From Pachysolen tannophilus NRRL Y-2460 (taxonomy: Eukaryota), in NCBI GenBank assembly GCA_001661245.1, contig KV454011.1:1-64000 (forward strand): 64,000 bases of DNA, written 5' to 3'. The translations under genes and the position numbers were made by a program. Positions 3,786-59,975 of this stretch are shown piece after piece. Position 1 is the stretch's first letter, and each line of letters starts with the position of its first letter. A model generated the notes under the pieces. It was not told where the DNA came from, searched no databases, and worked only from the letters and a program-made list of their open reading frames with translations.

Positions 3786-4040
3786 GTTACTAAAGTAGTA
3801 TCTAACAGCTACATTTTGGCTCTTTGTTTTCACATAATTACGTTACCTTGATAATTTTGCTCTATAGATTTTTTTTCGCTATATTAGTCTCATAATTTTA
3901 ATTAATAAATTTTTTTTCATTTCTATACATATGTGATGAATGTAATAAGAAATAAATTTATTTCTTATAAATTTAACGTCGAGTTCAATAATTCATTGCT
4001 ATATTCTGAAACGTCTTGAATTTTTTTTTTTTTTATCTAT

Positions 4041-5426
4041 TTATTTTTTAAGAGCAAACGAATGCGTCAAGGAGCTCTCTAAAAGTGAATTATCGTTATT
4101 ATTCATTCTATGACTACTAATTTTAAAGCAATCTGGCACTTCTTCATCCTCAATACTTGTTCCCTTTTTAATACAATTTGCAATAGCTTTACCACACAAC
4201 AAAATTCGAGGCATTCCATGTCCGTGGAATCCAGCAATTACAAATTTATTAGTCTCCGATACTGATTCACCCACGTACGGTAGTGAATCATTTGAATAAC
4301 CTAAAATACCTGGCCAAGCATAATCTACTACCGTATTTAAACTTTTCATCGATATAAAATGCTTTTGAAGCCAATTATCAAAATAGCGGTCTGTATTTTC
4401 AATTAAGTTCGAATCATCAACTACGTCGAAGAATTTTTCTCTGTAAGGGAAGATGTGTTTTTTAGCTCCTCCTACAACAATGGAACCATCCGGGCGTGGG
4501 ATCATGTAATCACTTTTTGACCCTGAGTAGCGGAGGCTATATGTATTTGTTAGATATGGAAGGCTCTCAGACTTACAAGCAGATACAATATGCGTACAAG
4601 TGCCTTTAATAGGAAAAATTTTTCCATCAAACTCTGGAGCAATAGCTTTAGTATATGCATTTGTTGCAATAACAATCTTATCCGCAAGTATATCACCCCT
4701 TGAAGTTTTGACTAAAAATTTATCATTATTCAATTTACTAGTTTTAATAACCATTGTATTGCTCTGTAAGTTCATGCCTTTTTTGATACAAATTTGCAAT
4801 AGAGCTACAACAAACTTGTAGGGCCATATTTGACCAGCTGGATAAGTTATACATGTTTCTGCATCCGGAACTTTTGAAATAATTTTTGCCGTTTCACCAA
4901 AATGTATTTGTATATCTTCCTTATTTTCAACTGAGCTATTTTTCATCATGGCGCTATAACCATCCACAGTTTTTTGTTGTTCTTCGGGAGTCATATCGAC
5001 GTCTACGGCCCTAGTCAATACTAAATCGCAAGCAATGTTTTCTTTTGAAACAAGTTTTGCAATTTCTTTAAAATTCTTATTTTCAAAATTGATAAGCTGG
5101 GCTGCGTTACTAGTTCCAAAATTTTTTGCATGCCTTAGATATCCTCTGTAGTTATCTGGTTTAATATGTCCGCCATTTCTGCCTGTGGCACCCGAGCAAA
5201 CATCTCTAGCCTCCAACATTACTATTTTAGGTGGAGTAGGATTATCTTGATATAAATAGTAAGCTGTTGACGCACCTGAAAACCCTGATCCAATTATAAC
5301 AACATCCAGCTCTTGAGGTAAAAAGTCTGTTGTTCGGTGATGCTTAAACTCATCAGACTCTGAGAGCCAAAAGGAAATCATTGGATTAGAAACTGGAAAA
5401 TAAGACTTAGTTGAGTCTGTCATCAT
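4041..5426 (-). CDS. FAD-dependent oxidoreductase, DAO/PuuB-like family
   Basis: DVVIIGSGFSG dinucleotide-binding motif, CSGATGRNGGH, C-terminal AGFHGHGMPRI. Confidence 0.88.
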   Translation of the reverse strand: MMTDSTKSYFPVSNPMISFWLSESDEFKHHRTTDFLPQELDVVIIGSGFSGASTAYYLYQDNPTPPKIVMLEARDVCSGATGRNGGHIKPDNYRGYLRHAKNFGTSNAAQLINFENKNFKEIAKLVSKENIACDLVLTRAVDVDMTPEEQQKTVDGYSAMMKNSSVENKEDIQIHFGETAKIISKVPDAETCITYPAGQIWPYKFVVALLQICIKKGMNLQSNTMVIKTSKLNNDKFLVKTSRGDILADKIVIATNAYTKAIAPEFDGKIFPIKGTCTHIVSACKSESLPYLTNTYSLRYSGSKSDYMIPRPDGSIVVGGAKKHIFPYREKFFDVVDDSNLIENTDRYFDNWLQKHFISMKSLNTVVDYAWPGILGYSNDSLPYVGESVSETNKFVIAGFHGHGMPRILLCGKAIANCIKKGTSIEDEEVPDCFKISSHRMNNNDNSLLESSLTHSFALKK

Positions 5427-5963
5427 TATATTTTGGAAGCTATCAAGATTTATTCATCCAACAGATAAATTAAGAAATTATCACTTCAGAAAGAAAATTA
5501 AGTACAGAAAAAGAAGAATTGGACATCTATGACTTTTAAGTAATCCATTTAGAAAAAAAAACCTAGATATCTTCTAATGGCTTAGTAAACCTTGATGAAA
5601 TATTTATGGCCAAAAACTAGGCCGAATCAATCTAAAATGCGGTTATCTTCGAATTGGGAATGCTTTCTGTATGAACTCGAGAAAAAGCTGCAGATAAAAT
5701 GCAGCCTCATCTGAAAAGTAGAAATTGCCCAAACTTATAGTATGTACCTTAAGCAACTCGTACCGCAGAGTTAAACTAGATGCAGTTCTAAGTAGTTACG
5801 GATCATGGTTTCACAATTTGGTGATAAGAAACATTGAAAAGATAGTTAGACGACAAATCGAAATATTCTAATATATCAGTACGGTTTTTCTCTTGTGTAT
5901 CATTCGAGAGACACTTACTATTTGAAGATTTATCCTAGAAATAGATAAGAGAAGAAGTAAAAA
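5427..5963. promoter_or_regulatory. Divergent promoter (oxidoreductase/HAD) with GATA sites
   Basis: GATAAG at 5823 and 5944 plus further GATAA/TTATC cores; carries motifs shared with the 10.8-11.6 kb promoter (5737-5754, 5789-5800). Confidence 0.6.
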
Positions 5964-6698
5964 ATGCCCTCAATTGTATTTGACATTGTTGGAACACTTA
6001 TATCTTACGAAAACTGTATTGCTGAAATAGAAAAGCAACTTGGAGATAGATTCAAGGCTGACAACATAAACCTGTCATTATTTTTCTTCTTTTGGTTGGC
6101 TGGTGCAGAAAGAGATTACTCGTATCTATCTCAATCGAATAATTATCAGCCTTTTTCCAAAATTATGGAATATACATTTTACAGGTCCTTGTTTTTTGCT
6201 GGTATAAAAACACCAAGACATTATTGTAGCCAAGATGAAGTCAATGAAATCATCAAGATTGGGTTTTTCAATTTAAGAGCAAGAAAACAAACCGAGGAAA
6301 CATTGAAGTTATTAGCTGAATATGGGTTTACTACCTATTTTTTAACAGATGCTTCTTCAGAAAGGGTGTTGAACTATTTTAAGAAATCAGGAATAGAAAT
6401 ATCCTCTGAAAATTTAATTTCTTGTGACTCCATTGATGCAGGAAAGCCGGAAGCTATTGTTTATCAGACTATGTCAAAAAGGTTGCCCGATAAACACAAG
6501 AATGACAAATGGTTCTTTGCAGCTCATATGTGGGATTCCTGCGCAGCCAGACAAGGAGATTTTAGAACTGCTTGGTCTGCAATTCATGAGTTTGAGCCGT
6601 GCACAGAGATTTTCGGAGAACCTGATGTACTTGGTGATGGTTTATTAGATACAGCTAGAAAGGTAATTGCCATGCATAAGACATTACTGGAAAAATAG
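5964..6698 (+). CDS. HAD-superfamily hydrolase, haloacid dehalogenase type II-like
   Basis: Motif I FDIVGTL, GKP motif III, AAHMWD motif IV. Confidence 0.85.
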   Translation: MPSIVFDIVGTLISYENCIAEIEKQLGDRFKADNINLSLFFFFWLAGAERDYSYLSQSNNYQPFSKIMEYTFYRSLFFAGIKTPRHYCSQDEVNEIIKIGFFNLRARKQTEETLKLLAEYGFTTYFLTDASSERVLNYFKKSGIEISSENLISCDSIDAGKPEAIVYQTMSKRLPDKHKNDKWFFAAHMWDSCAARQGDFRTAWSAIHEFEPCTEIFGEPDVLGDGLLDTARKVIAMHKTLLEK

Positions 6699-7021
6699 TA
6701 TAAATCAATAATAACATATATTATCTGTTATGTTAACTAAAGTTTAAGATTTATTATTTGAGACATTTGAATTACAAATAACAGGTTAAAATTTCAATTC
6801 TATTCTATTTGGTAAATACTATAAGGTAATAACAATTGTTTTTTCTTTTCTTTTTTTTTTTGCTCTAAAAGAAATACATAATTTGAATCTCAAAAATTTC
6901 AACTTTAAGAAAAGTCTTCCTATTTCTAAGACATTTGCAATACAATTTCAATTTCTTTGAGTACAAAAGTAGGTCTATACAAAGCTAATACTAAACCTAC
7001 CTAAACTTGTTAATTTAGGAT

Positions 7022-10000
7022 CTAAGTAGATTCTTTGACAATAGCCAAGCAATCACCAGGATTTACCATATCTCCTTCGTCAACAATGATTTCTAAAATC
7101 TCATAAAATTTGGCTTCTTTCTTGGTTTTGATTCTAACTGCGATTTCCATTTTCATTGCTTCTAGAACAATTAACACATCATCTTTTGTTACTTTATCAC
7201 CTTTTTTCACATTAACCTTGAAAATATTAGCAGCCATGCTAGACTGCACCTGGATATTATTAGGATCATTCAAGAGATTCAAATCTGAGTTTTTTGATGC
7301 TTTGGCAAGAGATTTTTCATGCATCCATTGATCCCATAATTTATTTTCCACCTTAGTTAGCTCTTCACAAGCTTTTATTTGTCTTTGTTTCAAAATAGCA
7401 GCTTCTTCAGCAATTGACTCCAAAAACTTTGTATATTCTTCAAAATCAAATAATGACTCTTTAGTATGAATTTTCAATTCACCAGTAATTAATTCATTAT
7501 TCAATTCAGCTAATTGTGGTTCATTTACTTCGTAAAATTCAATCTGGTCAAAATTCTTGAAAAACCAAGGTTTTCCACCAAAATCTTGGATTCTAGAAAA
7601 AGTATCCCAACATATATTTGGTAAAGTCATTCCCCAAATCATATATCCTCCTGGTGAGTCAACTGAATAAATTGAATGGCCGACAGCACCAGTACCAACA
7701 GCACCTCTTGGTGTAAAAGTTCTTGCCGGATTATACTTCTGAGTCATAAACCTCATTCTGGGATCTGGATGTGCAATCAAAGTATTAGCACATAAAAATG
7801 ATGCTGCAGTAATAATTTCAGGTTTACCGATAATTTTATCCTTGAAATCTTCAATCGTCTCTATACAACTAGCCTTCATGACAAATTTAGTGTTATCCGG
7901 TAGATAAGAAGCATATGGTCTTTGTGAATGCATGTAACGCTCAATACAATGTCTCAATGCGCTATGATCAAAACAAATTGGAAGTTTATAGATTTTTGAA
8001 GGAATCTTTAATTTATCAATTGGAGGAATTTTTGACTCTAAGTCAATTAATTTCTGTAATAATACCTTACGTGATATCTTAGAAGGATCAAAAACAAAAG
8101 CCATAGCACCAGTTGCTGATTCATATCTGATTAAACCATCTTTGAGATCATTATCATTTGAAGATTCAATTTCTAATTCTAATGCACGTTGTCTACCATT
8201 ATTCAATAGCGTGAAATGATCTATGCTGAAGTCAAGAATAATCATTTTTTCTCCGGCCTGACGAAATGTTACTTGTGGTAAGTCTTTACTCAGGTCAGCA
8301 CTCCTATATAATATAGGAGACGAAATATTTTTGTCATATATCAGGAGAGAGTCATCAAAGGGCACAGCATCCAAATCCGTAGGGAAAGAGCACAAATATT
8401 TGAGGAATTTTGTTCTTTGTTCAGAAAGCTTTCTGGAGTCCTCGTAGGTAATAAGTTCAAATCTAATTCCTGAGCCAATTTTAGCTTGTCCAAATTTCCA
8501 CCAGTCTGCTTCTGCAGGAACAGAAACGCATGTGAATCCCGACAAAGTGGCACCGTCAACACCAAATAACACTAATCCTGAACCTACAGCACTTAAGCCA
8601 CAAGTTGGGTACGGATACTCCAATATGTTACTAGGATGTGCACCACCATCTCCACCGGAATTTCTTGAAAAGATCATCGGAGGGCCATCTAGTTTAATTG
8701 CACCTCTATTCGAATTTAGGTTCACATGATAAACTGTGTTGTATAGTTGTTTTAAACCTTCATCACTACAAATCTCTTCTGAATCATGAGGTCCCCTTAG
8801 CATTCTAATGGTCCAGACATGATTTTCATCTAAAGAAAAGACTGGACGACACTTTATAGGCAAGCTATAACCCAAAGCCAACTCTTTGATTTCGTCCTTT
8901 GGATCAATTTCCAAACAGTCACCAGTGAATACAACACGACCTTGATGACCCCCTAATCCCAAGGTGGGAGTACAGGATTTTGATCCTAGGTAGTAAGCAA
9001 CTCCTGGGAAGCCTCCTTGAATTGATAAATAAGATTTAGAACCCTGATTTGAAGTTTCTCCAATTGTAACAACGCACCCAGCCGGAACTGTCAAAGCAGT
9101 ATACATTGGAACATCTTTGCCATCTATTTTAAATTCAAATTCACCACCTGTGAGTGCTATTACTGCTGTGGAGTGAAACTTTATCACGGGACCTCGTAAA
9201 CTAATTTCTAAACCTTCGGTGTTCATATCATTTCCCACGATGATATTTGCAATTTGTAAGCATAATGGATCAACTGGACCACTCAAAGGCACACCACCAT
9301 TACTTTTTTCACGACCTGGTAAATCCTGGATACTAGTATAGGCACCACCTTCTTCAAACTCCATAAGATGGGGTCTAAAATTGAATGATTTATTCAAAAA
9401 CGATGTTAATGTTAACCCATTTTGATACTCAAAAGAGTTTAAAATCTCTTTTAAGTACTCCACATTGGTTGGTGGTCCTTGTATCTTGATTGAGTTTAAA
9501 ACATCAACCATTCCAGATGTTGCAATTTTTCTTGTCTTTCCCCAAACCATAACTTTTGCTAATAATGGATCAAAATAAGGAGAAATTTTTGCACCAGTTG
9601 AAATCCAATGGTCTATTCTAATTTTAAAATCTTTAAATTCAGTGATGCTAGGGAATTCAACGTTATGTAGAATTCCCGGAGAAGGCTGAAAATTTCTTAT
9701 TGGGTTTTCAGCATATACTCTACATTCAATAGCATGACCTTGGGGAATTGCTACTCCATTTTCATCAACATCAAATGTACATTGCTCTTTCATGATTGAT
9801 AAAGGAATTCCAACTTGGCCTTTTGCTTCGTACTCTGCTTGTAGTAACATCATATAAACGAGATCAAGACCATAAATCAATTCTGTAATACCATGCTCCA
9901 CTTGTAGTCTCGTGTTCATTTCTAAAAAGTAATAATCACCACTATCATTATCAACAAGAAATTCTACAGTTCCTGCTGACTTATAATTCATACTTGAAGC

Positions 10001-10816
10001 AAGCCTAATAGCACACTCGGATAGATTTTTACGTAAACTCTTGTTATTATAATCGGGCAATTCAATAAATGGACTAGGTGCTTCTTCAACAACTTTTTGA
10101 TGACGACGTTGGATTGAACATTCTCTTTCACCGAAAGCCATTACATCGCCTTTTCCATTACCAAAAACTTGAATTTCAATGTGACGCCCATTCTCAACAT
10201 ATTTCTCCAAAAAAACACCAGTATTTTTGAATAACGACTCTCCTCTTGATTGAACTTCCTGAAAATTACTTTTCAATTCTGCTTCTTCATAACAAACTTT
10301 TAATCCCATACCTCCACCTCCTGCGGTTGCTTTTAACATGATTGGGTAACCTATTTTATTTGCGCACTCAATAACATCACTTTCCTTTTCTATTAAGTCA
10401 GAACCTGGTACAATAGGAACATTATTTTTACTAGCGATATCACGAGCAAAATGTTTTAAACCAAACAACTTAACCGACTCAGGACTTGGTCCAGCAAATA
10501 CAATTCCTTCTTTTTCCAAAGCCGCAGCAAAATCGGAATTTTCAGACAAAAACCCATAACCTGGTACTGCAACATCACAATAATGATCTTTTGCAACTTT
10601 TACAATTTGTTCAATGTCTAAATAAGCTGAAGCACCAACACCCTTTATTAAAACAGCAACATCAGCACTTGAAACATGTAGTGAATCCACATCTTCTTTT
10701 GTAAAAATGGAAACAGATTTCAATCCTAATTGCTTACAACTTTGAATTATTCTACAAGCAATTTCTCCTCTATTTGCTACAAGAACAGTTTTTATTTTCG
10801 TAAAGTGACTTTCCAT
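7022..10816 (-). CDS. Urea-carboxylase-like (LamA-like) biotin-dependent enzyme: BC + AHS2/PxpC-like + AHS1/PxpB-like + biotin carrier, no amidase domain
   Basis: VLVANRGEIA, GYGFLSEN, RECSIQRRHQKV, EMNTRLQVEH, HPSN, KYNPARTFTP, SPGGY, EAMKM biotin site; first ATG is 10816 (the ORF track starts at an upstream TTG). Confidence 0.9.
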   Translation of the reverse strand: MESHFTKIKTVLVANRGEIACRIIQSCKQLGLKSVSIFTKEDVDSLHVSSADVAVLIKGVGASAYLDIEQIVKVAKDHYCDVAVPGYGFLSENSDFAAALEKEGIVFAGPSPESVKLFGLKHFARDIASKNNVPIVPGSDLIEKESDVIECANKIGYPIMLKATAGGGGMGLKVCYEEAELKSNFQEVQSRGESLFKNTGVFLEKYVENGRHIEIQVFGNGKGDVMAFGERECSIQRRHQKVVEEAPSPFIELPDYNNKSLRKNLSECAIRLASSMNYKSAGTVEFLVDNDSGDYYFLEMNTRLQVEHGITELIYGLDLVYMMLLQAEYEAKGQVGIPLSIMKEQCTFDVDENGVAIPQGHAIECRVYAENPIRNFQPSPGILHNVEFPSITEFKDFKIRIDHWISTGAKISPYFDPLLAKVMVWGKTRKIATSGMVDVLNSIKIQGPPTNVEYLKEILNSFEYQNGLTLTSFLNKSFNFRPHLMEFEEGGAYTSIQDLPGREKSNGGVPLSGPVDPLCLQIANIIVGNDMNTEGLEISLRGPVIKFHSTAVIALTGGEFEFKIDGKDVPMYTALTVPAGCVVTIGETSNQGSKSYLSIQGGFPGVAYYLGSKSCTPTLGLGGHQGRVVFTGDCLEIDPKDEIKELALGYSLPIKCRPVFSLDENHVWTIRMLRGPHDSEEICSDEGLKQLYNTVYHVNLNSNRGAIKLDGPPMIFSRNSGGDGGAHPSNILEYPYPTCGLSAVGSGLVLFGVDGATLSGFTCVSVPAEADWWKFGQAKIGSGIRFELITYEDSRKLSEQRTKFLKYLCSFPTDLDAVPFDDSLLIYDKNISSPILYRSADLSKDLPQVTFRQAGEKMIILDFSIDHFTLLNNGRQRALELEIESSNDNDLKDGLIRYESATGAMAFVFDPSKISRKVLLQKLIDLESKIPPIDKLKIPSKIYKLPICFDHSALRHCIERYMHSQRPYASYLPDNTKFVMKASCIETIEDFKDKIIGKPEIITAASFLCANTLIAHPDPRMRFMTQKYNPARTFTPRGAVGTGAVGHSIYSVDSPGGYMIWGMTLPNICWDTFSRIQDFGGKPWFFKNFDQIEFYEVNEPQLAELNNELITGELKIHTKESLFDFEEYTKFLESIAEEAAILKQRQIKACEELTKVENKLWDQWMHEKSLAKASKNSDLNLLNDPNNIQVQSSMAANIFKVNVKKGDKVTKDDVLIVLEAMKMEIAVRIKTKKEAKFYEILEIIVDEGDMVNPGDCLAIVKEST

Positions 10817-11619
10817 ATTTGTTAAAAATTTCAATTGTCTAAGATTTGATAAAAGAAAAGATTATTTTATTTTCACTGTGAAGTTCCAATTAATTTATGT
10901 TCGTTTTCCACAAAGTTCATGATGAGGTTGATTTGAAAATCAAGTCAAGATAAGGCAGTCGTAACCGCTAAAGCATTTCTGCTATAGGTTTTCTTGCTTT
11001 TTTCTGTTTTTTTCATTTTTATTATTATATCTCTTTGCCGCTACTACTTTCAAGTAAGGTAAGCCCACCGGTGTTTTATCATATACTTACTACTCATTTC
11101 TGATAGGGGATCAAAATGAGATTCTTGGAAGTGTTTGCGCTAAAACTGAATTCGGCAAGGGCATATGCAAGATAATGCATAGTATGTGCCTTTAAGCTGT
11201 AAGATAAAAAATACCAGCATCTCTTTGAATCATTTCATAGACTATTAGAATTCTTTTATTATTGTGTGTTTCTGTTCTTATCTCACCACAGGTTTGGATC
11301 AGCTATTAGCGGCTGATGAGAGTTAATATTACTCAATTTATTATTATTTAGATGGAAGATCAAAAAATAAAAAAAAAAAAAAGTAAGTGTTGAGCATATT
11401 ATATATTACAAAGCTTTGCTTATCCTCAAATTCGAAGTGAGAAATAATAAATACGTTATCTGCAGAAACGTTTCCATAAATATATTAACCTCAAACTTCA
11501 CTGTTTGATTTTTTTTTTTTTTTTTCTCATTTATTCTTTAAAAGAGAAGTTACTCTACTGTTTGATTCTTTGGTTTTATTTTGAGCTTCAAAGTTGTTTA
11601 AAATATCAACAAAGCACAA
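10817..11619. promoter_or_regulatory. Divergent promoter (carboxylase/transporter), GATA-rich, nitrogen catabolite repression type
   Basis: GATAAG 10949; CTTATC 11277 and 11419; GATAA 10848, 11171, 11203. Confidence 0.65.
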
Positions 11620-13749
11620 ATGAGTACCGAAAATACTATTCAAATCTTTTCTGTTGGCACAGGCTATGGGTATGTTGTTGGGGTAGGCTTTGCGTTTGCT
11701 CTCATTATGTGTTTTGTTTCTTGGCTTCTTTCCAAATATCTTAGTGAGGTCCAGGATTCAGAAATGTTAATGACAGCAAAGAGATCAATTAAGACCGGTT
11801 TGACTGCAAGTGCGGTGGTCTCATCTTGGACGATAGGTTCAACTTTACTTTTATCCTGCACTGAAACTTACACTTATGGTGTTGCTAGTGCATGGTGGTA
11901 TGGTGCTGGTGCCTGTGTACAAATTGTTATATTTTGTACAGCTGCAATTGAATTGAAAAGAAGAGCACCAAATGCACATACTATTCAAGAAGCTTTGTTA
12001 AAAAGATATGGTACCAAAGCACACATTGTTTCATTATGTTATTGCTTAGGTCAACAAATTGCATATTCGGCCAATTTATTAATTAATGGTGCTTCAATAT
12101 TTAGTAATTTAACTGGTATGAACAATGATGCTGCCATTGCCCTATTTCCTGTTGGTGTTATAGTGTATACTTTATTGGGTGGTATCAAGGCTACTTTCTT
12201 AACAGATTGGACTCATACAGTTATAATTTACGTATTAATGTTGACTTTTTCATTTTCTTGTTACGCTACAAATGAAGACATAGGCTCTCCAGGTAAGTTG
12301 TTTGATCTTTTGGTTACTGCTTCCGATAGAAGGCAAATATCTGGAAACCGCGATGGTAGTTTATTGACTTTTGACTCACGTCAGTCTGGATTATTTGGTC
12401 TTGTCTTATTTGGAGCAGGTTGGGCTGCCTCAGTTGACTCTCAATTGTTCCAAAAGGCAATTGCATGCGATATTGGATCTCCAAAAAACAAATTATCTGG
12501 TGTTTTAGTATCGTACACTCTTGGCTCGCTTTGTTGGTTTACAATTCCGTTTGTTTTATCTACAACCTTGGGTTTAGCTTGCGCGGGACTAGAAGGTACT
12601 GATGCATTCCCAACTACTTCTCATTATATGACAAGTGCAGAGATTTCAGCTGGTTTGGTTATGCCTTACGGTGCGTATGCTTTATTAGGTAGAAGTGGAA
12701 TGGCTATGGTTTTGACAATGATTTTCATGGCCGTTACTGCTGCATTTTCTTCAGAGACAGTTGCTGTTTCATCATTAATTACCCATGATATATACAAGAC
12801 ATATATCAACCCTGATGCCAAAGGCAAAAAATTAATTGCAATTTCACATATGGGTGTTCTTGCTTTTGGTGCTGTGACAATAGGTTTAGGAATTGGCTTG
12901 GCACATGCCGGTTTTGACGTTTCGTTCATCACTACTGTTTCAGGTATTGTGGTCAATGTTTGTGTAATTCCAATGGGTTGCACTTTATTTTGGGACAGGA
13001 TGACTTCTTTCAATTTCATATGTAGTACTACCATATCATCTTGTATTTCACTTGCAGTGTGGATCGGTTATACTGCTCATCAGTCTGGTAACAATGTTAC
13101 GCTAACAAGTCTTTCAACGAATGAGGCGTTAGCTGCTGGTAACACTGTTGCCATTTTTGCTCCAGCATTGTTAATACCAATTTTTTATTTCGTTAAAAAG
13201 CCAAAGGAAAGATTTGACTGGAGCAAATTGCTAGAAATCAGACAGGATGATAATACTGAATATGACCAAGAGCATGGGTTACAAAACGTTTTGTCTGGTG
13301 ACGAGGCAACAAAATTAGCCGTAGAAGAAAATTTAAAGAATGACCAATTCATGGTCAGGCAAAGAAATTTAGGTGCTTGTGTTGCAGGCTTCTTAGTTTT
13401 CTTTTATTTGATTATTTTCCCATTACCACTCTATGGTTCTCATTATGTTTTCTCAAAAGATTTTTTCACAGGTTGGGTAGTTGTTATGTTCCTTTGGGCC
13501 TTTTTTTCAGCAATAACAATTACCTGTTTGCCAATATATGAGGCTAGGTACTCTATCAAGATGTTATTTGAACTTATTACTGGTAAACAGAAAAAATTTG
13601 ACAATACTATCAGTATTGTTGAATCCAAAGAATCTGGATTTGCTTCAGGCTCACTGGCAGGTGCCTTGAGTGGATCACACGATAAAGAAACTAAAATCGT
13701 CACAAATGTTTCTCCAAAAGCTGATTATGAGAGTAGTTTTGACCCATAA
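11620..13749 (+). CDS. Dur3-like sodium:solute symporter family transporter (urea/amine type)
   Basis: GLTASAVVSSWT, ELKRRAPNAHT, GGIKATFLTDWTHT, FMAVTAAFSSE, DIYKTYINP. Confidence 0.88.
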   Translation: MSTENTIQIFSVGTGYGYVVGVGFAFALIMCFVSWLLSKYLSEVQDSEMLMTAKRSIKTGLTASAVVSSWTIGSTLLLSCTETYTYGVASAWWYGAGACVQIVIFCTAAIELKRRAPNAHTIQEALLKRYGTKAHIVSLCYCLGQQIAYSANLLINGASIFSNLTGMNNDAAIALFPVGVIVYTLLGGIKATFLTDWTHTVIIYVLMLTFSFSCYATNEDIGSPGKLFDLLVTASDRRQISGNRDGSLLTFDSRQSGLFGLVLFGAGWAASVDSQLFQKAIACDIGSPKNKLSGVLVSYTLGSLCWFTIPFVLSTTLGLACAGLEGTDAFPTTSHYMTSAEISAGLVMPYGAYALLGRSGMAMVLTMIFMAVTAAFSSETVAVSSLITHDIYKTYINPDAKGKKLIAISHMGVLAFGAVTIGLGIGLAHAGFDVSFITTVSGIVVNVCVIPMGCTLFWDRMTSFNFICSTTISSCISLAVWIGYTAHQSGNNVTLTSLSTNEALAAGNTVAIFAPALLIPIFYFVKKPKERFDWSKLLEIRQDDNTEYDQEHGLQNVLSGDEATKLAVEENLKNDQFMVRQRNLGACVAGFLVFFYLIIFPLPLYGSHYVFSKDFFTGWVVVMFLWAFFSAITITCLPIYEARYSIKMLFELITGKQKKFDNTISIVESKESGFASGSLAGALSGSHDKETKIVTNVSPKADYESSFDP

Positions 13750-13945
13750 TTTTTTTCTATTGATAGCTTTTTCTTATAATAGTTGCTAGTTTATATATTA
13801 TCTTTAATGTAAATTAAATAATTTTATTTATTTTGATCCTCATAGAACTATAAACTTAATTATCCTATATAAATATTGAAAAATTTTGAATAAAAAATTA
13901 TCATATGAAATCCTAATAATATTTTATTGATTTATTATATTAAGT

Positions 13946-14716
13946 TTAAGTCTTTAATGAAAATCCAAGCTGTTTATTTACTTTGTCAATAGCTTCTCTC
14001 GCTTTTATGACATTTTCAAGAGCTGTTGGCATGTCTGAATGTAAACAAACACTAAATGGAGCATCTCCAAATCCAATATTCAATTCTTCGCCGTTATTGT
14101 CAAAGCATGATCCAGTTGTACCACACTTATAAATAGAGTCATAAATTTCTTGTGGAGTTTTCATTTGTGATTTTGCTGGTAAGACAAGATTACCTTCAGA
14201 ATTCCAATCTATATCACAATAAAATTCTTGAATAAATGGAACACCTTCTTCCTTGGCAATTTGTTCATAATGTGCATTTTTAGCACCTACAATTGGAACA
14301 TTAAATGTCTTTGCTGCTTTTAATGCTGCTCTCATTACATCTTCATTTTGTTCAATATAAAAATATAATTGACCATGAGGTTTAATATAAGACAATTCCA
14401 TACCTTCTGATTTCAAAAACCCATATAAGGCTCCTGTTTGATAAATGATCAAATTATAAATTTCTTCAGGAGCAATTTCCCATGGACGGCGACCAAACCC
14501 AATTTTATCTGGTAATCCTGGATGTGATCCCACCTTGACATTATACTGTTTTGCCAATTTAACAGTTTTCTTCATAATATTGTAATCACCTGCATGGAAA
14601 CCACATGCAATATTTGCACTATCAATATATGGCATGATTTCATCGTCAGGCCCCATTTTCCAACGACCATAACCTTCTCCCATGTCACAGTTTATTTCAA
14701 ATCTTGGTAAAAGCGT
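13946..14716 (-). CDS. LamB/YcsF (PxpA, 5-oxoprolinase subunit A) family protein; start codon uncertain
   Basis: Frame stays open upstream of the ATG at 14683, giving FEINCDMGEGYG; ANIACGFHAGD, GSHPGLPD, YIKPHGQLY, VCLHSD; 14716 is an ACG candidate start. Confidence 0.88.
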   Translation of the reverse strand, partial: TLLPRFEINCDMGEGYGRWKMGPDDEIMPYIDSANIACGFHAGDYNIMKKTVKLAKQYNVKVGSHPGLPDKIGFGRRPWEIAPEEIYNLIIYQTGALYGFLKSEGMELSYIKPHGQLYFYIEQNEDVMRAALKAAKTFNVPIVGAKNAHYEQIAKEEGVPFIQEFYCDIDWNSEGNLVLPAKSQMKTPQEIYDSIYKCGTTGSCFDNNGEELNIGFGDAPFSVCLHSDMPTALENVIKAREAIDKVNKQLGFSLKT

Positions 14717-15109
14717 TTTATTACTTAAAGCTTGCCCAAAGTTCCTCCACCACTATTAAGTGACAATCTCCTCTTCAGCAGCATCGCCAAAATATTCAAT
14801 TTCTACCTCAAAAAAAAAAAAAAAAAAATACAATCAATCAAATACTATAGTAGATATATATCTCTGTCCAATTTCTAAAATGTTTTCATTTTCAATTTTA
14901 AATTTTAATTTTTACGTCAAAATTTTTTGATATTTCCCAAACTACTAAATATGTATACAAATACATATTATATACACACAATATATATAAATAAAAAGAA
15001 TATATAAACAACCTTCAAAAGTTCTCTATCTGGATAACGAGATGGAATGGTAGGGAGGAGATATATAATGTAAAAACGAATGTCTTGGATCTTGTGAAAT
15101 CATTTATGT

Positions 15110-16054
15110 TTATAAGTTAATTGCGAACTTTCTGTAGAGTGTTAAGAAGAGGCTACTCAATACTGGGATAGTAAGATTATCATCTATTCCAATATCGATT
15201 CCTTCACTTATTGCAGCAATAAATCCTGTTAAAATATAATCTAAAAGAGTTAAATTATGTTTATCCTCTGGTCTAGCCATATAATTGAAAATCCATAATG
15301 AAAAATTTCCAGCAATGAAAGCAGCAATACAACCAGCTAGTGATTTATTTTTGGTAATTTTTGGAGTATATTTCCCATAAAGACGACCAAATGTAGATGC
15401 ACCTGTATCTGCCCATGATAATAATAAAACTGAAAGTACTGCAATATCTCTTGAGCACCAAGAAAATGTAATTATTATTCCCAAGAGGTAATATAATACA
15501 CCGTTATAAGAATTTTTCACTTCTCTTTCTCTCATCATCCATCCCACAGCCTTCACATATAATTGATTAAAAATTGGTGATTGGAAACGTATAACGTCCA
15601 ATAATAAAATCACCACAAAAGCGGTAACCATCTTTGGTGTTATTTGATTAAGTTCATATCCTGATCGGTATAAGAAAAGAGTAATAAATCCAATACTTGA
15701 ATGAAATATTTTTCTTGGAACTTCATATTTATGAATAAAATTATGGAATCGCAGATGATATTGTAAAAAAGAAACTACCTCATCAACTTCTTGTTTTAAT
15801 TCTTTTATTATTCGATCACCAGTAGAAATATTCTCATTCTCATTCTCATTCTCCACCACATTACTATTCTCCGAATTTGTTGAAATAGAAGACTCTTCAA
15901 GTTTAGTTGAAGAAATAAAATCTGGGTCATTAGCTGTTTCATCCGACGATGTATCAATATTGGTTATTGATTCGGTAATTTTGGAAGAATCATTTTTATT
16001 ATTGGGTTTTTTCCTATTCCTGAAATTTAAATTATCTTTCTTTAAAGTAGTCAT
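15110..16054 (-). CDS. DGK1: CTP-dependent diacylglycerol kinase
   Basis: YEVPRKIFHSSIGF, LLLSWADTGASTFGR, KSLAG, DDNLTIP. Confidence 0.92.
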   Translation of the reverse strand: MTTLKKDNLNFRNRKKPNNKNDSSKITESITNIDTSSDETANDPDFISSTKLEESSISTNSENSNVVENENENENISTGDRIIKELKQEVDEVVSFLQYHLRFHNFIHKYEVPRKIFHSSIGFITLFLYRSGYELNQITPKMVTAFVVILLLDVIRFQSPIFNQLYVKAVGWMMREREVKNSYNGVLYYLLGIIITFSWCSRDIAVLSVLLLSWADTGASTFGRLYGKYTPKITKNKSLAGCIAAFIAGNFSLWIFNYMARPEDKHNLTLLDYILTGFIAAISEGIDIGIDDNLTIPVLSSLFLTLYRKFAINL

Positions 16055-17153
16055 CTTCCTACGAAAATTTCTCTTTCAATTACAACAATCTTCAACTGAT
16101 GACTCGTATCTATAAAAATACCAATTTAAATTGATTTAAACACATTTACAAAATGGATTCTGGTTAAGAAAACAAAACTTTTTTCTTTTCTTTTTCTTGT
16201 ACCCGGAAAACCAAGTCCAATTGACACGCCAAAAAAGAAAAAAGAAATACAAAAAGCGCGTAAATTTACACCGGCCATTTGGCAGAATTCATTTAGAAGA
16301 ATTGAATCTGAAGAAGTCATGGATCACACCTTGAGATTCATTGATCAATTGATAGGTTAGTTGGCTAATAAGTAGTTACGTTTATAGGAGAATTTTTTCC
16401 TGTTTTATTTTTTTTTTTTTTTTTTTCTTGCTACTTTTAAAGCTATTATTGTCTCAAGAAACATAAAAGAGTGATAGATATTTATTTTTATTCGGTCAGA
16501 GAACCGTTATTCTCGTACCTGTTAGCATTCACTCTATTACTGGTACTTTTAAGTCTTATCAAGTTGGTTGGTGTAAGTCTAGACTATTTAAGTCTAGACT
16601 ATTTTTTCAAGCAAATTGTAATAATAGTACGTTTCCAAGTATACAATAATACATATCTTTATTATACATACAAATTTTAAATCATTTTCAATAAATATGT
16701 TATTCTCTCCACATATATTCGACTTCGCCCAAAAAAAGAAAAAACAAGAAAACTATATCAACAGGAATGCATCGTATTTCTTTTTTTTTGCTTTATGATT
16801 TACAAGAAGTAAATTTGAATTGGGGATAAAAGGTTTATGGGTTTAGATAAGATGAAATTTCTAGTGCGGCGCAGAACTTATCGTAACCGCTAACTTGCAT
16901 AAAGTTTTTTTTAAAGTTAGGTAAGAGGTTCTTGCCCCTAAACTATTTGAGATGCAGTGAATCACAAATAGTTCCCGCTAACTCAAGATAGGGGAATGAT
17001 GCGAGTATTGTTCAATTGATGAGTATTGCTGGATCATTATAATAATTAAAGTATGTTATAAATTTGGTTTATATCACATTGTAAAAAAAAAAAATCATTG
17101 AAATTGGTGGGTTTCTTTTTTTTTCTTTTTTGCTTTTTGGTCAGCCAGCCATC

Positions 17154-18984
17154 ATGACTTTACCAAAGACACCAAAGAGACTTTCTGGGAAAGAAGCAAA
17201 AAGCGGATGCTGGTGGTCAGCTGCAAGATTTAAAAGATTTGAAGGATTTTTTATTATCGACTTTTTCGCTTGTAAACAATTTAAGAGATGATAATAATAG
17301 GTTAATTTCAAAAGAATTTTTCAAATTGCCTTCAAAGAAGCTTTATCCCGATTATTATCAATTGATAGAATCGCCAATATCGTTTAATGAAATCAAGTTA
17401 AAAATTATAAATAATAAATATACTAGTGCTGCAGAATTTTTACAAGATTTTAAATTGATGAATAAAAATGCTAGAACTTATAATGATCCATCTAGTGATA
17501 TCGTATTAGATTGTGATTTTGTATTGAATTTTATTGAAGACCAAGTAAAGCAATATTTGGGAGAAACAATTGAAGAAGAAAAAAATGAAGTATCAGCGCC
17601 AATAGAGAAAGAAGAAACAAATACAAAATTACCAAAACTTACAATAAAGAAAAAGGGTAAAAAAAGGCAACAACAAGAAGAACAGAAACCTATAGTTTCT
17701 TCAGTAGATTATTCACCACAATTGAAAAAAATAATAGATCATTTAGTAAACTATAGAGTACCTAAAAAGGGAAAGATAGCTGCTGTATTTATGGATGAAG
17801 TTGATGGCGAATTATATCCGGATTATTATGTTGTTATTAAAAAGGGAATGGCATTCAATACAATTTATTCTAATTTACTGAAAGATTTATACAAAAATGA
17901 CATTGATTCTTTTTATAATGATGTAAATTTGATTTTCCAAAATGCTCAAACATATAATCAAGAAGGAAGTATAATTTTTGAAGATAGTGTTATTTTATCA
18001 AATATTTTTGAAGAAAAATTCAAGGCATTTAAAGAAGAAAATGTTCATGAAGAAAATATTGATGAAGAATCAACGGGTAAACCTTTGAAACTAAAATTAA
18101 AACAAAATAAATTGAAGATTCATTTATCTACAAAACAGGAATCACGAGATGCATCACCACCTCCAAGGAAAGGACGTGGCCGCAAGAAAAAGACTTCTGA
18201 ACCACTGATTGATATTGAAACTCAGGAAGATGAAAAAACTGAAGAAGAGCCACTGAAAGTTGAAATTGAGAATGAAACTCTTGTTTCTAAACCTGAAGAA
18301 AATGAACAAACCGAGGATGAATTGGAACCAAAGCTGATAACTCCTTTGCCTGAAAAAGAAGAATCTCCCGAATTATCTCCTGATACTGTAATTGGATATA
18401 AGAGAGCAAAAATTAATCCTCCTAATCCCTACTTTAAAAATTTTACTAATTTAATCAAGGAAATAACGATAAATACAGTGAAAACGTCATATTCAGCAAC
18501 AAAATTACAGTCTTCAGCTGTTGGTAAATATTTTTCATCTAGATATTCAACACAGGATGGAGTCTTGAACAATTTAAAACAAACTTTCCGTGAATATAAA
18601 TTTAATTCGGAACCATTGGCAAATAATTATTCATTATATATCGACAATTGTAATAGTGTCTCAATAAGGACAGTTTTAAACCCAAAGAAAATTGGCAATC
18701 AGAAATATGATGATGTTTTGTTCATTAATGGAGAAAAATTGACTGCTTCGCCAAGTGTTATATCGGCAACAGATGATGATAATGACCTAGGCTTGTACAC
18801 CTCCAAATTTGATGTCAAGTTATCGCCAGGATTAAATTCTTTTGAATATGTTATTAGATTAGGACCTGTTATCGAGCTGGATAAAGACGGAAAATTACCA
18901 CCAAGGCATTTGACTAAACCAAGTAATGAAGACAGCTATGTTATTGAAAGATGTTGTGTTTGGGTTGTCGTTGGTCAATATTAA
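17154..18984 (+). CDS. RSC4: RSC complex tandem-bromodomain subunit; apparent +1 frameshift near the 5' end
   Basis: Two bromodomains (YPDYY...NARTYN; YPDYY...NAQTYN), no BAH domain, C-terminal beta-rich domain; ATG at 17154 is one base out of frame with the long ORF. Confidence 0.75.
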
Positions 18985-27832: not shown

Positions 27833-29674
27833 ATGTCTACTAGAGATATACCACATTCTTTTTCTCAATTTGCTACAGGATGGATTCCTAGAGCTAGAAA
27901 AGAGATTACTCTTAATAAATCTACTGGAGAAATTGTTGAAAAAATCGCTCCTGTTGCTCCAGCTGAAAATATTTTCTCTGAAGTTGATGATGAAATTTCA
28001 GATAGAGTTAGAACTAAAAGTTTATGGGCAATTTTCACTGCAGGTGCCGGTTTATTTTCTGATGGTTATGTCAATAACTCTATATCAACAGTATCAACTT
28101 GTTTAAAAATTCTTTATCCAACAGAATACGCTGATAGTAGAGCAATATCAAATGTTTCATCTATTGTATTTGCAGGTACCGTTTTAGGTCAGTTAATCTT
28201 TGGGGTATGGTCAGATTACTTCTCAAGAAAAAATGCAATGATCACTTCCACAGTAATCTTGATCGTGTTCACTATATTAACATCTGGTTCATGGGGTTAT
28301 AAAGGTTCCATTAATGGTATGCTTGTAAGTAAAAGTAAAGTGTTTTTTTTTTTCTTTTCTCTTTTCTCTTTTCCCCCATTGGAAGATAGATAGCACATGC
28401 CATGCTGCCCTCTGGTCACCGTGCACACTATCTCTTTTAAAAGCAAAATGCGCGAAAAAATAGGGGAAAAATTTGAAAAAACAGAAAAAAGGTTTGCAAA
28501 AGATAATAATAAATAATAAGTTACTAACATTTGAAAAATACATTTTTTTTAGGCTGCATTAACTGCATACAGATTTTTCTTGGGTATTGGTATTGGAGGA
28601 GAATACCCAGCAGGATCAGTTGCATGCGCAGAGGCATCATCGTTGTTACCTCCTGGTAAAAGAAATAGGTATTTCTGTTGGTTTACTAATTTTATGATTG
28701 ATTCCGGGTTTGTTGTTTCTGCATTTGTTCCAATGGTGATGTTGTGGATCTGTACTCCTAAGCATTTAACTCCGGTTTGGAGAGTAACTTTGGGTTTAGG
28801 TGCAATTCCACCAATTTCATTATTTTTCATGCGTTTAATGTTTCAAGAGGGAAAACAATTTAAAAAATTGAATTTTAAAAGAACTAGAGTACCATATTGG
28901 TTGGTTATAAAATTTTATTGGTTTAGATTGGCTGTTGTTTCTATTATTTGGTTTATTTATGATTTTAGTAGTTATGCTTTTGGTCTTTATTCTTCAAATA
29001 TCTTGGATATAATTATTCCAGATGGTGATTTATACAAGACTTTTGGTTGGAATGTTGTCTTAAACTTATTTTATATTCCAGGTGCATTTTTAGGTGCAAT
29101 TTCTGCAGATTATTTTGGACCAAGACTTACATTAGCAGCTGGTGTCTCTTTACAATCAATTGTTGGTTATATCATGGCTGGTTGTTTTGAACCTTTATCA
29201 AAACATGTTGGGGGTTTTGTTGTTGTTTATGGTATCTTTTTAACATTGGGAGAATTTGGACCTGGTGATTGTATTGGTTTATTATCTTCAAAGACTTCAG
29301 CAACTCCAATTAGAGGTCAATATTACGGTATTGCTGCTGCTATTGGTAAAGTTGGTGCCTTTGTAGGTACTTATCTTTTCCCAATTATCCAAGATGATGC
29401 AGGTGGTGCTTCTACAATTAAAGGTGAACAAGCTCCATTTTGGGTTGCTTCATCCCTTTGTGTATTTAGTGCATTTTTAACTTTATTTTTCTTGCCTCCT
29501 GTTGATCAAGAAGCTGTTGAAAATGAAGATAAGACTTTCATTACCTACCTTCATGATTCAGGTTTCGATATCAGCTTATTGGGTGATGCAGATGAAACTT
29601 CAAGTGGACTGTCTTCAAATGATGAACATGAGGTTGAACAAATTGTTACTGAAACTCATGTTGATAAATCATAA
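27833..29674 (+). CDS. Glycerophosphodiester (GIT1-family) MFS transporter; 2 exons (27833-28324, 28553-29674)
   Basis: Intron 28325 GTAAGT...TACTAAC(28522)...TAG 28552 joins GSINGML to AALTAYRFFLGIGIGGEYP; GAGLFSDGYVNN; GEFGPGD. Confidence 0.9.
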
Positions 29675-57842: not shown

Positions 57843-58652
57843 ATGACTTTTGACAAGTGAGTTAACTTTGTTTCTTTTTTTTTTTTTTTTTCTTGAAATG
57901 AATTAATATACTGATCAAATTATAGGCAAATCAAAGCATGTCTATTTGACATGGACGGGCTTCTTATTAATTCAGAAGATGTTTATACTACAGTATACAC
58001 CGAATTATTGCAGAAATATGGGAAACCCGCATTGACTTGGGATGTCAAGTATAAGTTGCAAGGAAGAGCTGGTGTTGATGCAGCTCAGATTGTTATAGAT
58101 CATTATGGTCTTCCGAAAGATTTAACTCCTCAAATGATTTTAGATATCAATTATAAGAGACAATTGGAACTTTTCCCACATTGTAAATTCATGCCTGGTG
58201 CTTTGGAATTGGTAAAATATTTAAAGTCGAAAAATTTCGCCATTGGATTGGCTACATCATCTAGCAAGAAAACTTTTAAATTGAAAACTGAAAATTTAAA
58301 AGAAGAATTTTCATTATTTGGAAAACATGTTATTACTGCAGATGATGTTCCACCAGGGAAAAGTAAACCTCAACCAGATATTTATTTAACCTGCTTGAAA
58401 TCTATAAATGATGAAAGAATATTGAAAGGTGAGCCTGAAATTAGCATTGAGGAATGCCTTGTTTTTGAAGATGGAAGACCAGGTGTTGTTGCTGGTATCA
58501 CTGCAGGGGCATACGTAATCTGGGTTCCAGATAAGAGAGCTGTTGCAGTAATGGACCCACAGGAATTAGCAATTATTGGTAAAAATAATGAATACGGAGT
58601 GATTTTAGGCAGTTTGGAAGAACTAAATAAAGAACATTTTGGTCTTCAGTAA
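57843..58652 (+). CDS. HAD-family phosphatase (YKL033W-A/HDHD1 pseudouridine-5'-phosphatase-like); 2 exons (57843-57856, 57926-58652)
   Basis: ATGACTTTTGACAA|GTGAGT...TACTGAT...TAG|GCAAATC gives MTFDKQIKACLFDMDGLL; LATSS, KPQPDIY, CLVFEDG. Confidence 0.88.
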
Positions 58653-59975
58653 GTGTATACTTAGTTATATTTCAGTTGTATATTGAGAGTTTACTTTTAC
58701 TCTCTTCTTTTCTCAACTTGATTGAAAAATTTTTTTTTTTTTCACTTTATTTTTTTTTTTTTTTTTGTTCACTTTGTTCTCTACAATAAATTACTATATA
58801 ACAATAAGATAATGTCCAGATGAATGTAATAGTAAGGCTAAATCCAGTATTNNNNNNNNNNNNNNNNNNNNNNNNNNNNNNNNNNNNNNNNNNNNNNNNN
58901 NNNNNNNNNNNNNNNNNNNNNNNNNNNNNNNNNNNNNNNNNNNNNNNNNNNNNNNNNNNNNNNNNNNNNNNNNNNNNNNNNNNNNNNNNNNNNNNNNNNN
59001 NNNNNNNNNTTTTTTCTTGAAATGAATTAATATACTGATCAAATTATAGGCAAATCAAAGCATGTCTATTTGACATGGACGGGCTTCTTATTAATTCAGA
59101 AGATGTTTATACTACAGTATACACCGAATTATTGCAGAAATATGGGAAACCCGCATTGACTTGGGATGTCAAGTATAAGTTGCAAGGAAGAGCTGGTGTT
59201 GATGCAGCTCAGATTGTTATAGATCATTATGGTCTTCCGAAAGATTTAACTCCTCAAATGATTTTAGATATCAATTATAAGAGACAATTGGAACTTTTCC
59301 CACATTGTAAATTCATGCCTGGTGCTTTGGAATTGGTAAAATATTTAAAGTCGAAAAATTTCGCCATTGGATTGGCTACATCATCTAGCAAGAAAACTTT
59401 TAAATTGAAAACTGAAAATTTAAAAGAAGAATTTTCATTATTTGGAAAACATGTTATTACTGCAGATGATGTTCCACCAGGGAAAAGTAAACCTCAACCA
59501 GATATTTATTTAACCTGCTTGAAATCTATAAATGATGAAAGAATATTGAAAGGTGAGCCTGAAATTAGCATTGAGGAATGCCTTGTTTTTGAAGATGGAA
59601 GACCAGGTGTTGTTGCTGGTATCACTGCAGGGGCATACGTAATCTGGGTTCCAGATAAGAGAGCTGTTGCAGTAATGGACCCACAGGAATTAGCAATTAT
59701 TGGTAAAAATAATGAATACGGAGTGATTTTAGGCAGTTTGGAAGAACTAAATAAAGAACATTTTGGTCTTCAGTAAGTGTATACTTAGTTATATTTCAGT
59801 TGTATATTGAGAGTTTACTTTTACTCTCTTCTTTTCTCAACTTGATTGAAAAATTTTTTTTTTTTTCACTTTATTTTTTTTTTTTTTTTTTTGTTCACTT
59901 TGTTCTCTACAATAAATTACTATATAACAATAAGATAATGTCCAGATGAATGTAATAGTAAGGCTAAATCCAGTA
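57887..59975. other. Assembly gap (58852-59009) with about 965 bp duplicated on both sides, creating a second HAD copy at 59075-59776
   Basis: 57887-58851 matches 59011-59975, including intergenic DNA and the first codons of MRF1. Confidence 0.85.

Follow-up and report, generated by a model that had tools for sequence, protein, structure and literature searches.

Gene content of the locus

The first 64,000 nucleotides of contig KV454011.1 of the yeast Pachysolen tannophilus NRRL Y-2460, referred to here as the window, contain five long open reading frames (ORFs, called with the standard code) within 10.7 kb that are arranged as two divergent pairs and one further gene. These encode a DAO-family flavin adenine dinucleotide (FAD) oxidoreductase, a HAD-superfamily hydrolase, a biotin enzyme resembling LamA of Aspergillus nidulans, a Dur3-type transporter and a LamB/PxpA-family hydrolase (Table 1). 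An earlier note, made from the DNA letters, had proposed five genes with these domains and orientations, which the ORF calls and Pfam bear out, and had joined them into a single nitrogen-scavenging pathway. The analysis presented here leans instead, by a modest degree, towards two separable nitrogen-catabolic modules that lie next to one another in a yeast of the CUG-Ala clade, namely a lam-type unit with its importer and a DAO-HAD pair.

The G+C content of the five-gene stretch is 31–38%. Database copies of three of the proteins (those encoded at 4041-5426, 5964-6698 and 7022-10816) match the DNA letter for letter only under NCBI translation table 26, in which CUG is read as alanine, and not under tables 1 or 12, which places the source yeast in the CUG-Ala clade. 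Given that each of the five genes holds only 0–2 CTG codons, the choice of code leaves all conclusions unchanged. The stored database model of the carboxylase begins at residue 160 of the full ORF and is thus 159 residues short. All five genes had been described as apparently intronless, and this can be upheld for the DAO, HAD and carboxylase genes, which look intronless because their homologues span 96–100% of each ORF. The absence of an amidase domain from the carboxylase was likewise confirmed, with no Amidase domain (PF01425) found by Pfam in this protein or in any of the 29 ORFs scanned across the 64-kb window. No tail of the peroxisomal targeting signal type 1 (PTS1) kind was seen by eye at the C-termini of the window proteins.

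Table 1. Coordinates of the genes, promoters and rearranged segment at the locus (window positions)
Feature	Position	Strand	Details
DAO-family FAD oxidoreductase	4041-5426	-	461 aa; Pfam PF01266 (DAO), E 5.4e-43
DAO/HAD divergent promoter	5427-5963		7 GATAA, of which 2 GATAAG; 12-mer CGTAACTACTTA at 5789-5800(-)
HAD-superfamily hydrolase, L-2-haloacid-dehalogenase fold	5964-6698	+	244 aa; Pfam PF00702 Hydrolase/HAD_2
LamA-like biotin enzyme	7022-10816	-	1264 aa; Biotin_carb_N, CPSase_L_D2, Biotin_carb_C, CT_A_B, CT_C_D, Biotin_lipoyl
LamA/Dur3-like divergent promoter	10817-11619		8 GATAA, of which 3 GATAAG; 13-mer TCGTAACCGCTAA at 10959-10971
Dur3-type sodium:solute symporter family transporter	11620-13749	+	709 aa; Pfam SSF, E 9.3e-24
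LamB/PxpA-family hydrolase, main part (codon 12 to stop, contigs' arrangement)	13946-14738	-	LamB_YcsF, E 2.8e-76
LamB ORF counted from the first ATG in the window	13946-14683	-	ORF call
LamB ATG and first codons, cut off from the rest by the inverted segment	17154-17185	+	contig run-on letters
Segment inverted in the window relative to the contigs, 2,447 bp	14739-17185		contigs of four public runs
CTP_transf_1-like gene inside the inverted segment	15110-16054		part of 14739-17185
LamB promoter in the contigs' arrangement	16055-17153		TCGTAACCGCTAA at 16881-16893; CGTAACTACTTA at 16369-16380(-); 3 GATAAG

The proposed LamA-Dur3-LamB unit

The LamA-like protein has the domain order biotin carboxylase, carboxyltransferase (CT) subdomains A/B and C/D, and biotin carboxyl carrier protein (BCCP), with an intact biotin motif at residues 1220-1223. 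It aligns end to end with budding-yeast proteins of 1185–1300 aa at 48–65% identity, and its homologues (120 among the matches listed) were found in Candida boidinii, Yamadazyma, Scheffersomyces, Wickerhamomyces, Ogataea, Zygosaccharomyces, Pichia kudriavzevii, Brettanomyces and Tortispora, where the databases name them urea carboxylase. Pezizomycotina proteins of the same name share 40–43% identity with it over 99% of its length. A survey of 64 fungi from 2011 reports that the amidase-less carboxylase is missing from Saccharomycetes (PMC3073912), and given its occurrence in many budding yeasts that statement is out of date.

A quick tree was built from 35 rows picked from the homologue list together with seven bacterial full-length urea carboxylases, with no Dur1,2 sequence among them. 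The fungal proteins stood apart from the bacterial ones (support 100), and 16 yeast rows formed one clade (support 100) with Tortispora near its base. The phylogenetic check for horizontal acquisition that the earlier note had called for therefore gave no sign of a recent bacterial origin of the carboxylase. Judged by bit scores only, the window protein appears nearer to the Pezizomycotina group (1035–1078 bits) than to Dur1,2 (789–791 bits for Kluyveromyces lactis). A record named Cerrena zonata (P0010), nominally a basidiomycete urea carboxylase, fell inside the Debaryomycetaceae-like yeast clade beside Scheffersomyces (support 97), which suggests a yeast contaminant in the Cerrena zonata assembly. 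A metagenome profile scan with the yeast carboxylase alignment returned nothing yeast-like among the 80 loci kept and gained no fungal synteny; the best locus, with 52% identity over residues 10-295, lies in a tightly packed one-strand operon of 45–51% GC.

In the window the genes for LamA and LamB are 3.1 kb apart with a single gene, that of the Dur3-type transporter, in between. Linkage of the two recurs elsewhere. In Tortispora caseinolytica they are consecutive (ODV89739.1/ODV89740.1) on one 2,610,682-bp scaffold with nothing annotated between them, and P0333 (a LamB homologue) and P0016 (a carboxylase homologue) each come from a single contig of 62,631 bp. In several Trichoderma species a block that moves as a unit combines genes for a urea carboxylase and LamB with those for an MFS transporter, an NADPH dehydrogenase and a transcription factor; its function is left open by the authors (PMC8675399). 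In A. nidulans, lamA and lamB are described as lactam catabolism genes under the control of AmdR (PMC8016842).

The transporter is predicted to be a sodium:solute symporter (SSS) family membrane protein near the fungal urea active transporters. It matches Pfam SSF and scores 164.8 bits on TIGR00813, and in the ESM Atlas the clusters nearest to it bear the name ‘urea active transporter’ (0.98), a match that serves as a lead only.

LamB matches PDB entry 1v6t_A (E 1.9e-53), and all 20 invariant columns of the LamB alignment (A2) are kept in the window row. Counted from the ATG at 14683 the protein enters the Pfam LamB_YcsF profile at position 7, with the conserved N-terminal motif upstream of that ATG, and the product would lose N21 and D23 of alignment A2, both nearly invariant. 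Homologues align into the upstream region, the best of them (P0333, 55% identical) having 28 residues ahead of the motif. Position 14716, where the earlier note had ended the gene, does not mark its start: ahead of the conserved N-terminal motif the frame lacks an ATG, and it is closed by stops at 14753-14758.

Logan contigs of four public runs (X1, X2 and X4 from one study, X5 from another that may be the source of this DNA) were compared with positions 3800-15300. The LamB-carrying contig of X1, X4 and X5 leaves the window match at 14738 and continues for 70, 785 and 765 letters, respectively, and in all four runs the contig with 14731-14800 begins its match at 14731. The join 14738/14739 as found in the window was bridged by none of the 32 pieces examined (of 783). 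The run-on letters, seen for X1 only, are the reverse complement of window positions 17156-17185 and 17194-17223. The segment 14739-17185 is thus inverted in the window relative to the contigs and is flanked by short inverted repeats, of which the window copy at 17186-17193 is one letter off (at 17190) from the repeat at the contigs' junctions. When the contigs' arrangement was rebuilt by coordinates, LamB started at the ATG of window position 17154 and ran for 274 codons with no internal stop. A bromodomain gene, the frame of which is open upstream of its first window ATG at 17458, gained a start at the ATG of window position 14784(-) and a length of 614 codons. Each of the two genes is interrupted in the window and complete in the contigs' arrangement. 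An assembly error appears to be a more likely source of the window inversion than a real strain-specific inversion, and the truncation of LamB in the assembly is probably not biological. An intron or a non-AUG start as the explanation for LamB was replaced by the inversion seen in the contigs. The many long-range joints at about 4019-4051 and 11362-11397 were set aside as repeat artefacts, with sides of only 19–23 letters made up of A/T-rich words that recur in many contigs.

Structure prediction of LamB with carboxylase residues 485-1120, run without alignments and without controls, yielded no verdict (score 0.00 in two runs). Two proteins from the LamB search (P0334 and P0335, 1011 and 602 aa) have PNP_UDP-like and NB-ARC/NACHT-like regions after a LamB domain and could be LamB-headed NLR-type proteins or merged gene models.

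The DAO-HAD pair and shared promoter motifs

The DAO-family protein has a GxGxxG motif at residue 46. Its best NCBIfam rows are all amine oxidoreductases with scores far under their cut-offs (TIGR03329, 100 bits against 633; AmaA, 84 bits), and it has many fungal relatives among the 120 matches listed. For the HAD hydrolase, a large protein search returned only 22 homologues, including the window's own, and every named one is fungal. The genes for the two proteins sit side by side, with consecutive locus tags or accessions, in five Ogataea species and in Ambrosiozyma monospora. The tags are KL905_005388/005387, KL935_001126/001125 and KL927_001114/001113 for O. polymorpha, HPODL_01096/01097 and KL918_000591/000592 for O. 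parapolymorpha, KL930_000569/000568 and KL911_000561/000562 for O. haglerorum, those of KL921, KL928, KL942 and KL909 for O. angusta and OGAPHI_004678/004679 for O. philodendri; in A. monospora the accessions are GMG24387.1/GMG24388.1 on one 9,242-bp contig. A 699-aa model from the Dothideomycete Polyplosphaeria fusca (P0214) contains both domains, its N-terminal part sharing 39% identity with the window HAD over 233 residues and its DAO part 41% with the window DAO. Whether the model reflects a genuine fusion or the merging of two gene models, the DAO and HAD genes are adjacent there. A quick DAO tree of 59 rows (the window protein, P0122-P0175, P0183, P0195, P0214 and P0331, with the remaining rows of the 120 listed left out) placed all four HAD-linked yeast DAOs in one 25-row yeast clade (Shimodaira–Hasegawa-like approximate likelihood ratio test, SH-aLRT, 93) and none in a second, 12-row yeast clade.

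Tags for the DAO, HAD and carboxylase genes together were available in seven assemblies from four Ogataea species (KL905, KL935, HPODL, KL918, KL930, KL928 and KL942). In every one of these the DAO-HAD pair is separated from the carboxylase by 878 to several thousand locus tags, as with the carboxylase HPODL_01974 and the pair HPODL_01096/01097. It is this separation that speaks most strongly against one pathway of five genes. The synteny check that the earlier note had proposed for the five families therefore came out divided, with LamA-LamB linkage and DAO-HAD linkage both recurring and no link between the two pairs in any of the seven, and its placing of DAO and HAD within the lam pathway was not borne out. 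In several Ogataea strains the DAO-HAD pair has very low or very high tag numbers (KL942_000005/6, KL908_000004 and KL905_005387/8, for example), which points to a location close to the end of a contig or chromosome.

Phosphatase-type HAD enzymes have a second Asp in motif I and the dehalogenase type does not. In the window hydrolase motif I reads FDIVGT, with FDIVG invariant and the T present in at least 90% of the HAD family alignment (A3), and the protein thus combines the fold with the Asp nucleophile and no second Asp, as in L-2-haloacid dehalogenases. A signature AAHMWD marks the family, and the invariant set includes W44, E49, F72-Y73-R74, R107, C154, A186 and H188-M-W-D191, with three arginines among the invariant residues. 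The predicted model had a predicted local distance difference test (pLDDT) value of 93.2. In a Foldseek comparison with this model the top 12 PDB rows were L-2-haloacid dehalogenases, followed by cis-epoxysuccinate hydrolases; the predicted fold gave template modelling (TM) scores of 0.73–0.77 to 7qnm, 7arp and 2ymm, at 17–22% identity to solved enzymes. The score on TIGR01428 (HAD type II) was 67.7 bits, below the cut-off of 125.4. L-2-haloacid dehalogenases and cis-epoxysuccinate hydrolases both attack the carbon beside a carboxylate. A phosphonate route of oxidase and phosphonatase, prompted by the top DAO row TIGR03329, was considered and rejected: the HAD has no invariant cap-domain lysine, no phosphonatase was among the Foldseek rows shown, and the TIGR03329 score falls far short of its cut-off.

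The claim that both divergent promoters are GATA-rich was confirmed against a background of 20,530 bp of other intergenic DNA in the window. GATAA occurs 7 times in the 537 bp between DAO and HAD and 8 times in the 803 bp between LamA and the transporter, as against 3.36 per kb in the background (Poisson P 0.0026 and 0.0066; counts reached in 25 and 68 of 2000 shuffles, respectively). GATAAG is enriched in all three promoters, with 2 (DAO/HAD), 3 (LamA/Dur3) and 3 (LamB) copies compared with 3 in the whole background. Given the GATA sites in both modules, nitrogen catabolite control would be expected. No CGG-N-CCG zinc-cluster site was found in the two divergent promoters.

An exact 13-mer, TCGTAACCGCTAA, is common to the LamA/Dur3 and LamB promoters. 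One copy precedes the LamA ATG by 143 bp and the other precedes the LamB ATG by 261 bp, each beside a GATAAG, and the word CGTAACCGCTAA also occurs in both the LamA and LamB promoters. The 13-mer gives fair support to co-regulation of LamA and LamB. With this element and with LamA-LamB linkage recurring in Tortispora and Trichoderma, the earlier view of LamA, Dur3 and LamB as a PxpABC-related amide-opening unit under GATA control is plausible. A related 12-mer with the core CGTAAC, CGTAACTACTTA, is common to the DAO/HAD and LamB-side promoters and offers a weak hint that the DAO-HAD pair shares a regulator with the LamB side. Of nine CGTAAC cores in 64 kb, four fall within the three promoters, which together span 2,439 bp.

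Genes flanking the five are ordinary for a yeast and include those for an MFS transporter, a carnitine acyltransferase, an RFX factor, Der1, Ask1 and a release factor, among others. Two 233-aa HAD_2 genes in tandem at 57951-58652 and 59075-59776 have identical Pfam scores and flanks with many common 12-mers, and appear to stem from a recent tandem duplication. Two other ORFs (27833-28393 and 28694-29674), which correspond to the N-terminal and C-terminal portions of Sugar_tr, together form a split sugar-transporter gene; an intron, a frameshift or a pseudogene could account for the split.

Competing explanations and relation to known systems

Under the two-module reading, LamA, the Dur3-type transporter and LamB would represent a yeast version of the fungal lamA/lamB system, and the comparative evidence from sequence and gene order supports such a lam-like assignment. 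The transporter would import a small neutral amide, possibly a lactam such as 2-pyrrolidinone. The biotin enzyme would then N-carboxylate the amide nitrogen with ATP and bicarbonate, as urea carboxylase does with urea, and LamB would hydrolyse the activated amide in the manner of the PxpA family. The resulting carbamate would shed CO2 to leave an omega-amino acid such as gamma-aminobutyrate (GABA) for ordinary nitrogen release. The DAO-family flavoenzyme and the hydrolase with the L-2-haloacid-dehalogenase fold would form an independent, conserved two-enzyme unit. In this unit the HAD hydrolase would displace a leaving group on the carbon alpha to a carboxylate, the model being the conversion of azetidine-2-carboxylate to 2-hydroxy-4-aminobutyrate by AzhA (PMC8016842), and the DAO oxidase would deaminate the freed amine. 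Being small, conserved, sometimes fused and apparently nitrogen-regulated, the pair is a clean candidate for function discovery.

That the five genes instead make up one regulon and pathway, with an imported nitrogen compound oxidised by DAO, processed by HAD and ring-opened by LamA and LamB, is unlikely. Proximity within 10.7 kb speaks for it, as do the enrichment of GATAA and GATAAG in both divergent promoters, the four CGTAAC sites in the three promoters, and the words that link DAO/HAD with the LamB side (CGTAACTACTTA) and LamA with LamB (CGTAACCGCTAA). These promoter words lose force on closer inspection, given that some 12-mer with at least four G/C is shared in 15 of 378 pairs of intergenic regions, that the degenerate pattern tested was derived post hoc from the sites themselves, and that the second CGTAACTACTTA copy is 315 bp from the CTP_transf_1-like gene as against 774 bp from LamB. 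Gene order argues further against it, with DAO-HAD far from the carboxylase in all seven Ogataea assemblies, LamA and LamB directly consecutive in Tortispora, and no DAO or HAD homologue on a contig equal in bp to that of a carboxylase homologue among the matches listed (120 + 22 + 120). A specific version, in which a CGTAAC-core element and GATA sites govern all five genes, is highly improbable. Here the Dur3-type carrier would take in a polyamine or cyclic amine, a PuuB-like oxidase would convert it to an amino-aldehyde or cyclic imine and thence to a lactam, LamA and LamB would release GABA, and HAD would act on a by-product or on a related cyclic compound, for example azetidine-2-carboxylate; if true, this route would be one not yet described in yeasts.

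An ordinary urea locus is likewise unlikely; in that case a true urea carboxylase would receive urea from a Dur3 importer, an amidase encoded elsewhere would hydrolyse allophanate, and LamB would be incidental. The urea carboxylase model TIGR02712 is the best NCBIfam row and a full-length match (1164.7 bits over residues 9-1260), the K. lactis urea carboxylase 3va7_A gives a match of 791 bits, the databases give the urea name to the carboxylase homologues and the nearest transporter clusters, and GATA sites agree with nitrogen control of the DUR type. The TIGR02712 score nevertheless lies below the curated cut-off of 1303.85, as do those of six of six other fungal proteins (1116–1300 bits), whereas six of six bacterial urea carboxylases, which have allophanate hydrolase or DUF1989 neighbours, exceed it by more than 480 bits (1785–1950 bits). 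Around seven bacterial full-length urea carboxylase loci, the neighbours were allophanate hydrolase (Amidase and AH_C) in five, two DUF1989 genes in two and LamB in none; the fungal genes are linked to LamB in Tortispora and Trichoderma, and here LamA shares the 13-mer with LamB and no amidase occurs in the 64-kb window. The fungal carboxylases are thus unlike true urea carboxylases in both score and gene context, although the gap in score could also come from the make-up of the model. Less probable again is a eukaryotic 5-oxoprolinase of PxpABC type that acts on 5-oxoproline, with the biotin domains as an add-on. LamB does reach 218.3 bits on the PxpA subfamily model NF003814, slightly below the cut-off of 226, CT_A_B and CT_C_D are homologues of PxpC and PxpB, and bacterial PxpABC supports growth on 5-oxoproline (PMC13274462; bioRxiv 10.1101/2021.12.09.472016). 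All five PxpA models, though, score below their cut-offs, and the PxpC equivalog gives 110.4 bits against a cut-off of 500. PxpABC is biotin-free, while a biotin carboxylase and BCCP with an intact biotin motif are fused here. In Pseudomonas putida, moreover, one pxpABC paralogue is genetically required for growth on butyrolactam and a different one for 5-oxoproline, so that the family is wider than 5-oxoproline (bioRxiv 10.1101/2021.12.09.472016).

Several points weigh against the two-module reading itself. The fungal scores under the TIGR02712 cut-off may only mirror a model built for prokaryotes, and the closest family of the carboxylase is still urea carboxylase, next to a member of the urea-transporter family, which makes urea or a urea-like amide a possible substrate. 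A Dur3-type gene between or linked to LamA and LamB was not found in any other genome compared, and the window, as given, lacks a start codon for LamB. The separation of DAO-HAD from the carboxylase rests on one genus, Ogataea, and the adjacency of the genes together with the CGTAAC-core 12-mer could mean that all five are co-regulated in this yeast.

The closest known counterpart is the lamA/lamB system of A. nidulans, with which the locus has in common an amidase-less urea-carboxylase-type protein beside a LamB/YcsF protein at a nitrogen-regulated fungal locus; the yeast and Pezizomycotina carboxylases also fall into one fungal tree group. It differs in the Dur3-type transporter that lies between the genes, which in A. 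nidulans are adjacent and divergent, and in the distinct yeast clade of its carboxylase. No AmdR-type site was noticed, no search aimed at one having been made. LamA/LamB-type enzymes have been known genetically since the A. nidulans work, and no biochemical characterisation of them was found in the literature accessible to search. The Trichoderma segment, termed ‘UC-related’, similarly groups LamB and a urea carboxylase-like gene with a transporter and a redox enzyme. Its transporter is of the MFS type, its redox enzyme is an NADPH dehydrogenase, a transcription factor is included, and no DAO or HAD is reported (PMC8675399).

With bacterial PxpABC and its butyrolactam paralogue (P. putida PP_2920-2) the locus shares the PxpA homologue LamB, the PxpB and PxpC homologues CT_C_D and CT_A_B, and, putatively, the opening of a five-membered lactam at the expense of ATP. 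Pxp consists of separate subunits without biotin; the fusion of their counterparts here to biotin carboxylase and BCCP would imply carboxylation of the amide in place of the biotin-free, ATP-driven activation by Pxp. Urea carboxylase and urea amidolyase (K. lactis Dur1,2; TIGR02712) have the same domain order from biotin carboxylase to BCCP, and differ in that the window enzyme has no fused or neighbouring allophanate hydrolase, scores under the model's cut-off and has LamB as its partner.

The window HAD resembles L-2-haloacid dehalogenases, cis-epoxysuccinate hydrolases and AzhA in its fold and in an Asp nucleophile without the second Asp, and its invariant His lies at the position marked H190 of the Zobellia enzyme in the title of 7asz. 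It is set apart from the solved enzymes by low identity, a score under the TIGR01428 cut-off and an invariant set of its own. AzhA (AN12472) is reported to have no homologues in Saccharomycotina (PMC8016842), and by that statement the window HAD is not an AzhA orthologue. The enzyme kinds at this locus are already known, and what appears to be new is a yeast variant of the lamA/lamB system together with an uncharacterised oxidase-hydrolase pair. Given that many budding yeasts carry the amidase-less carboxylase, tractable yeasts could be used to test biotin-dependent N-carboxylation as a general way to open stable amides.

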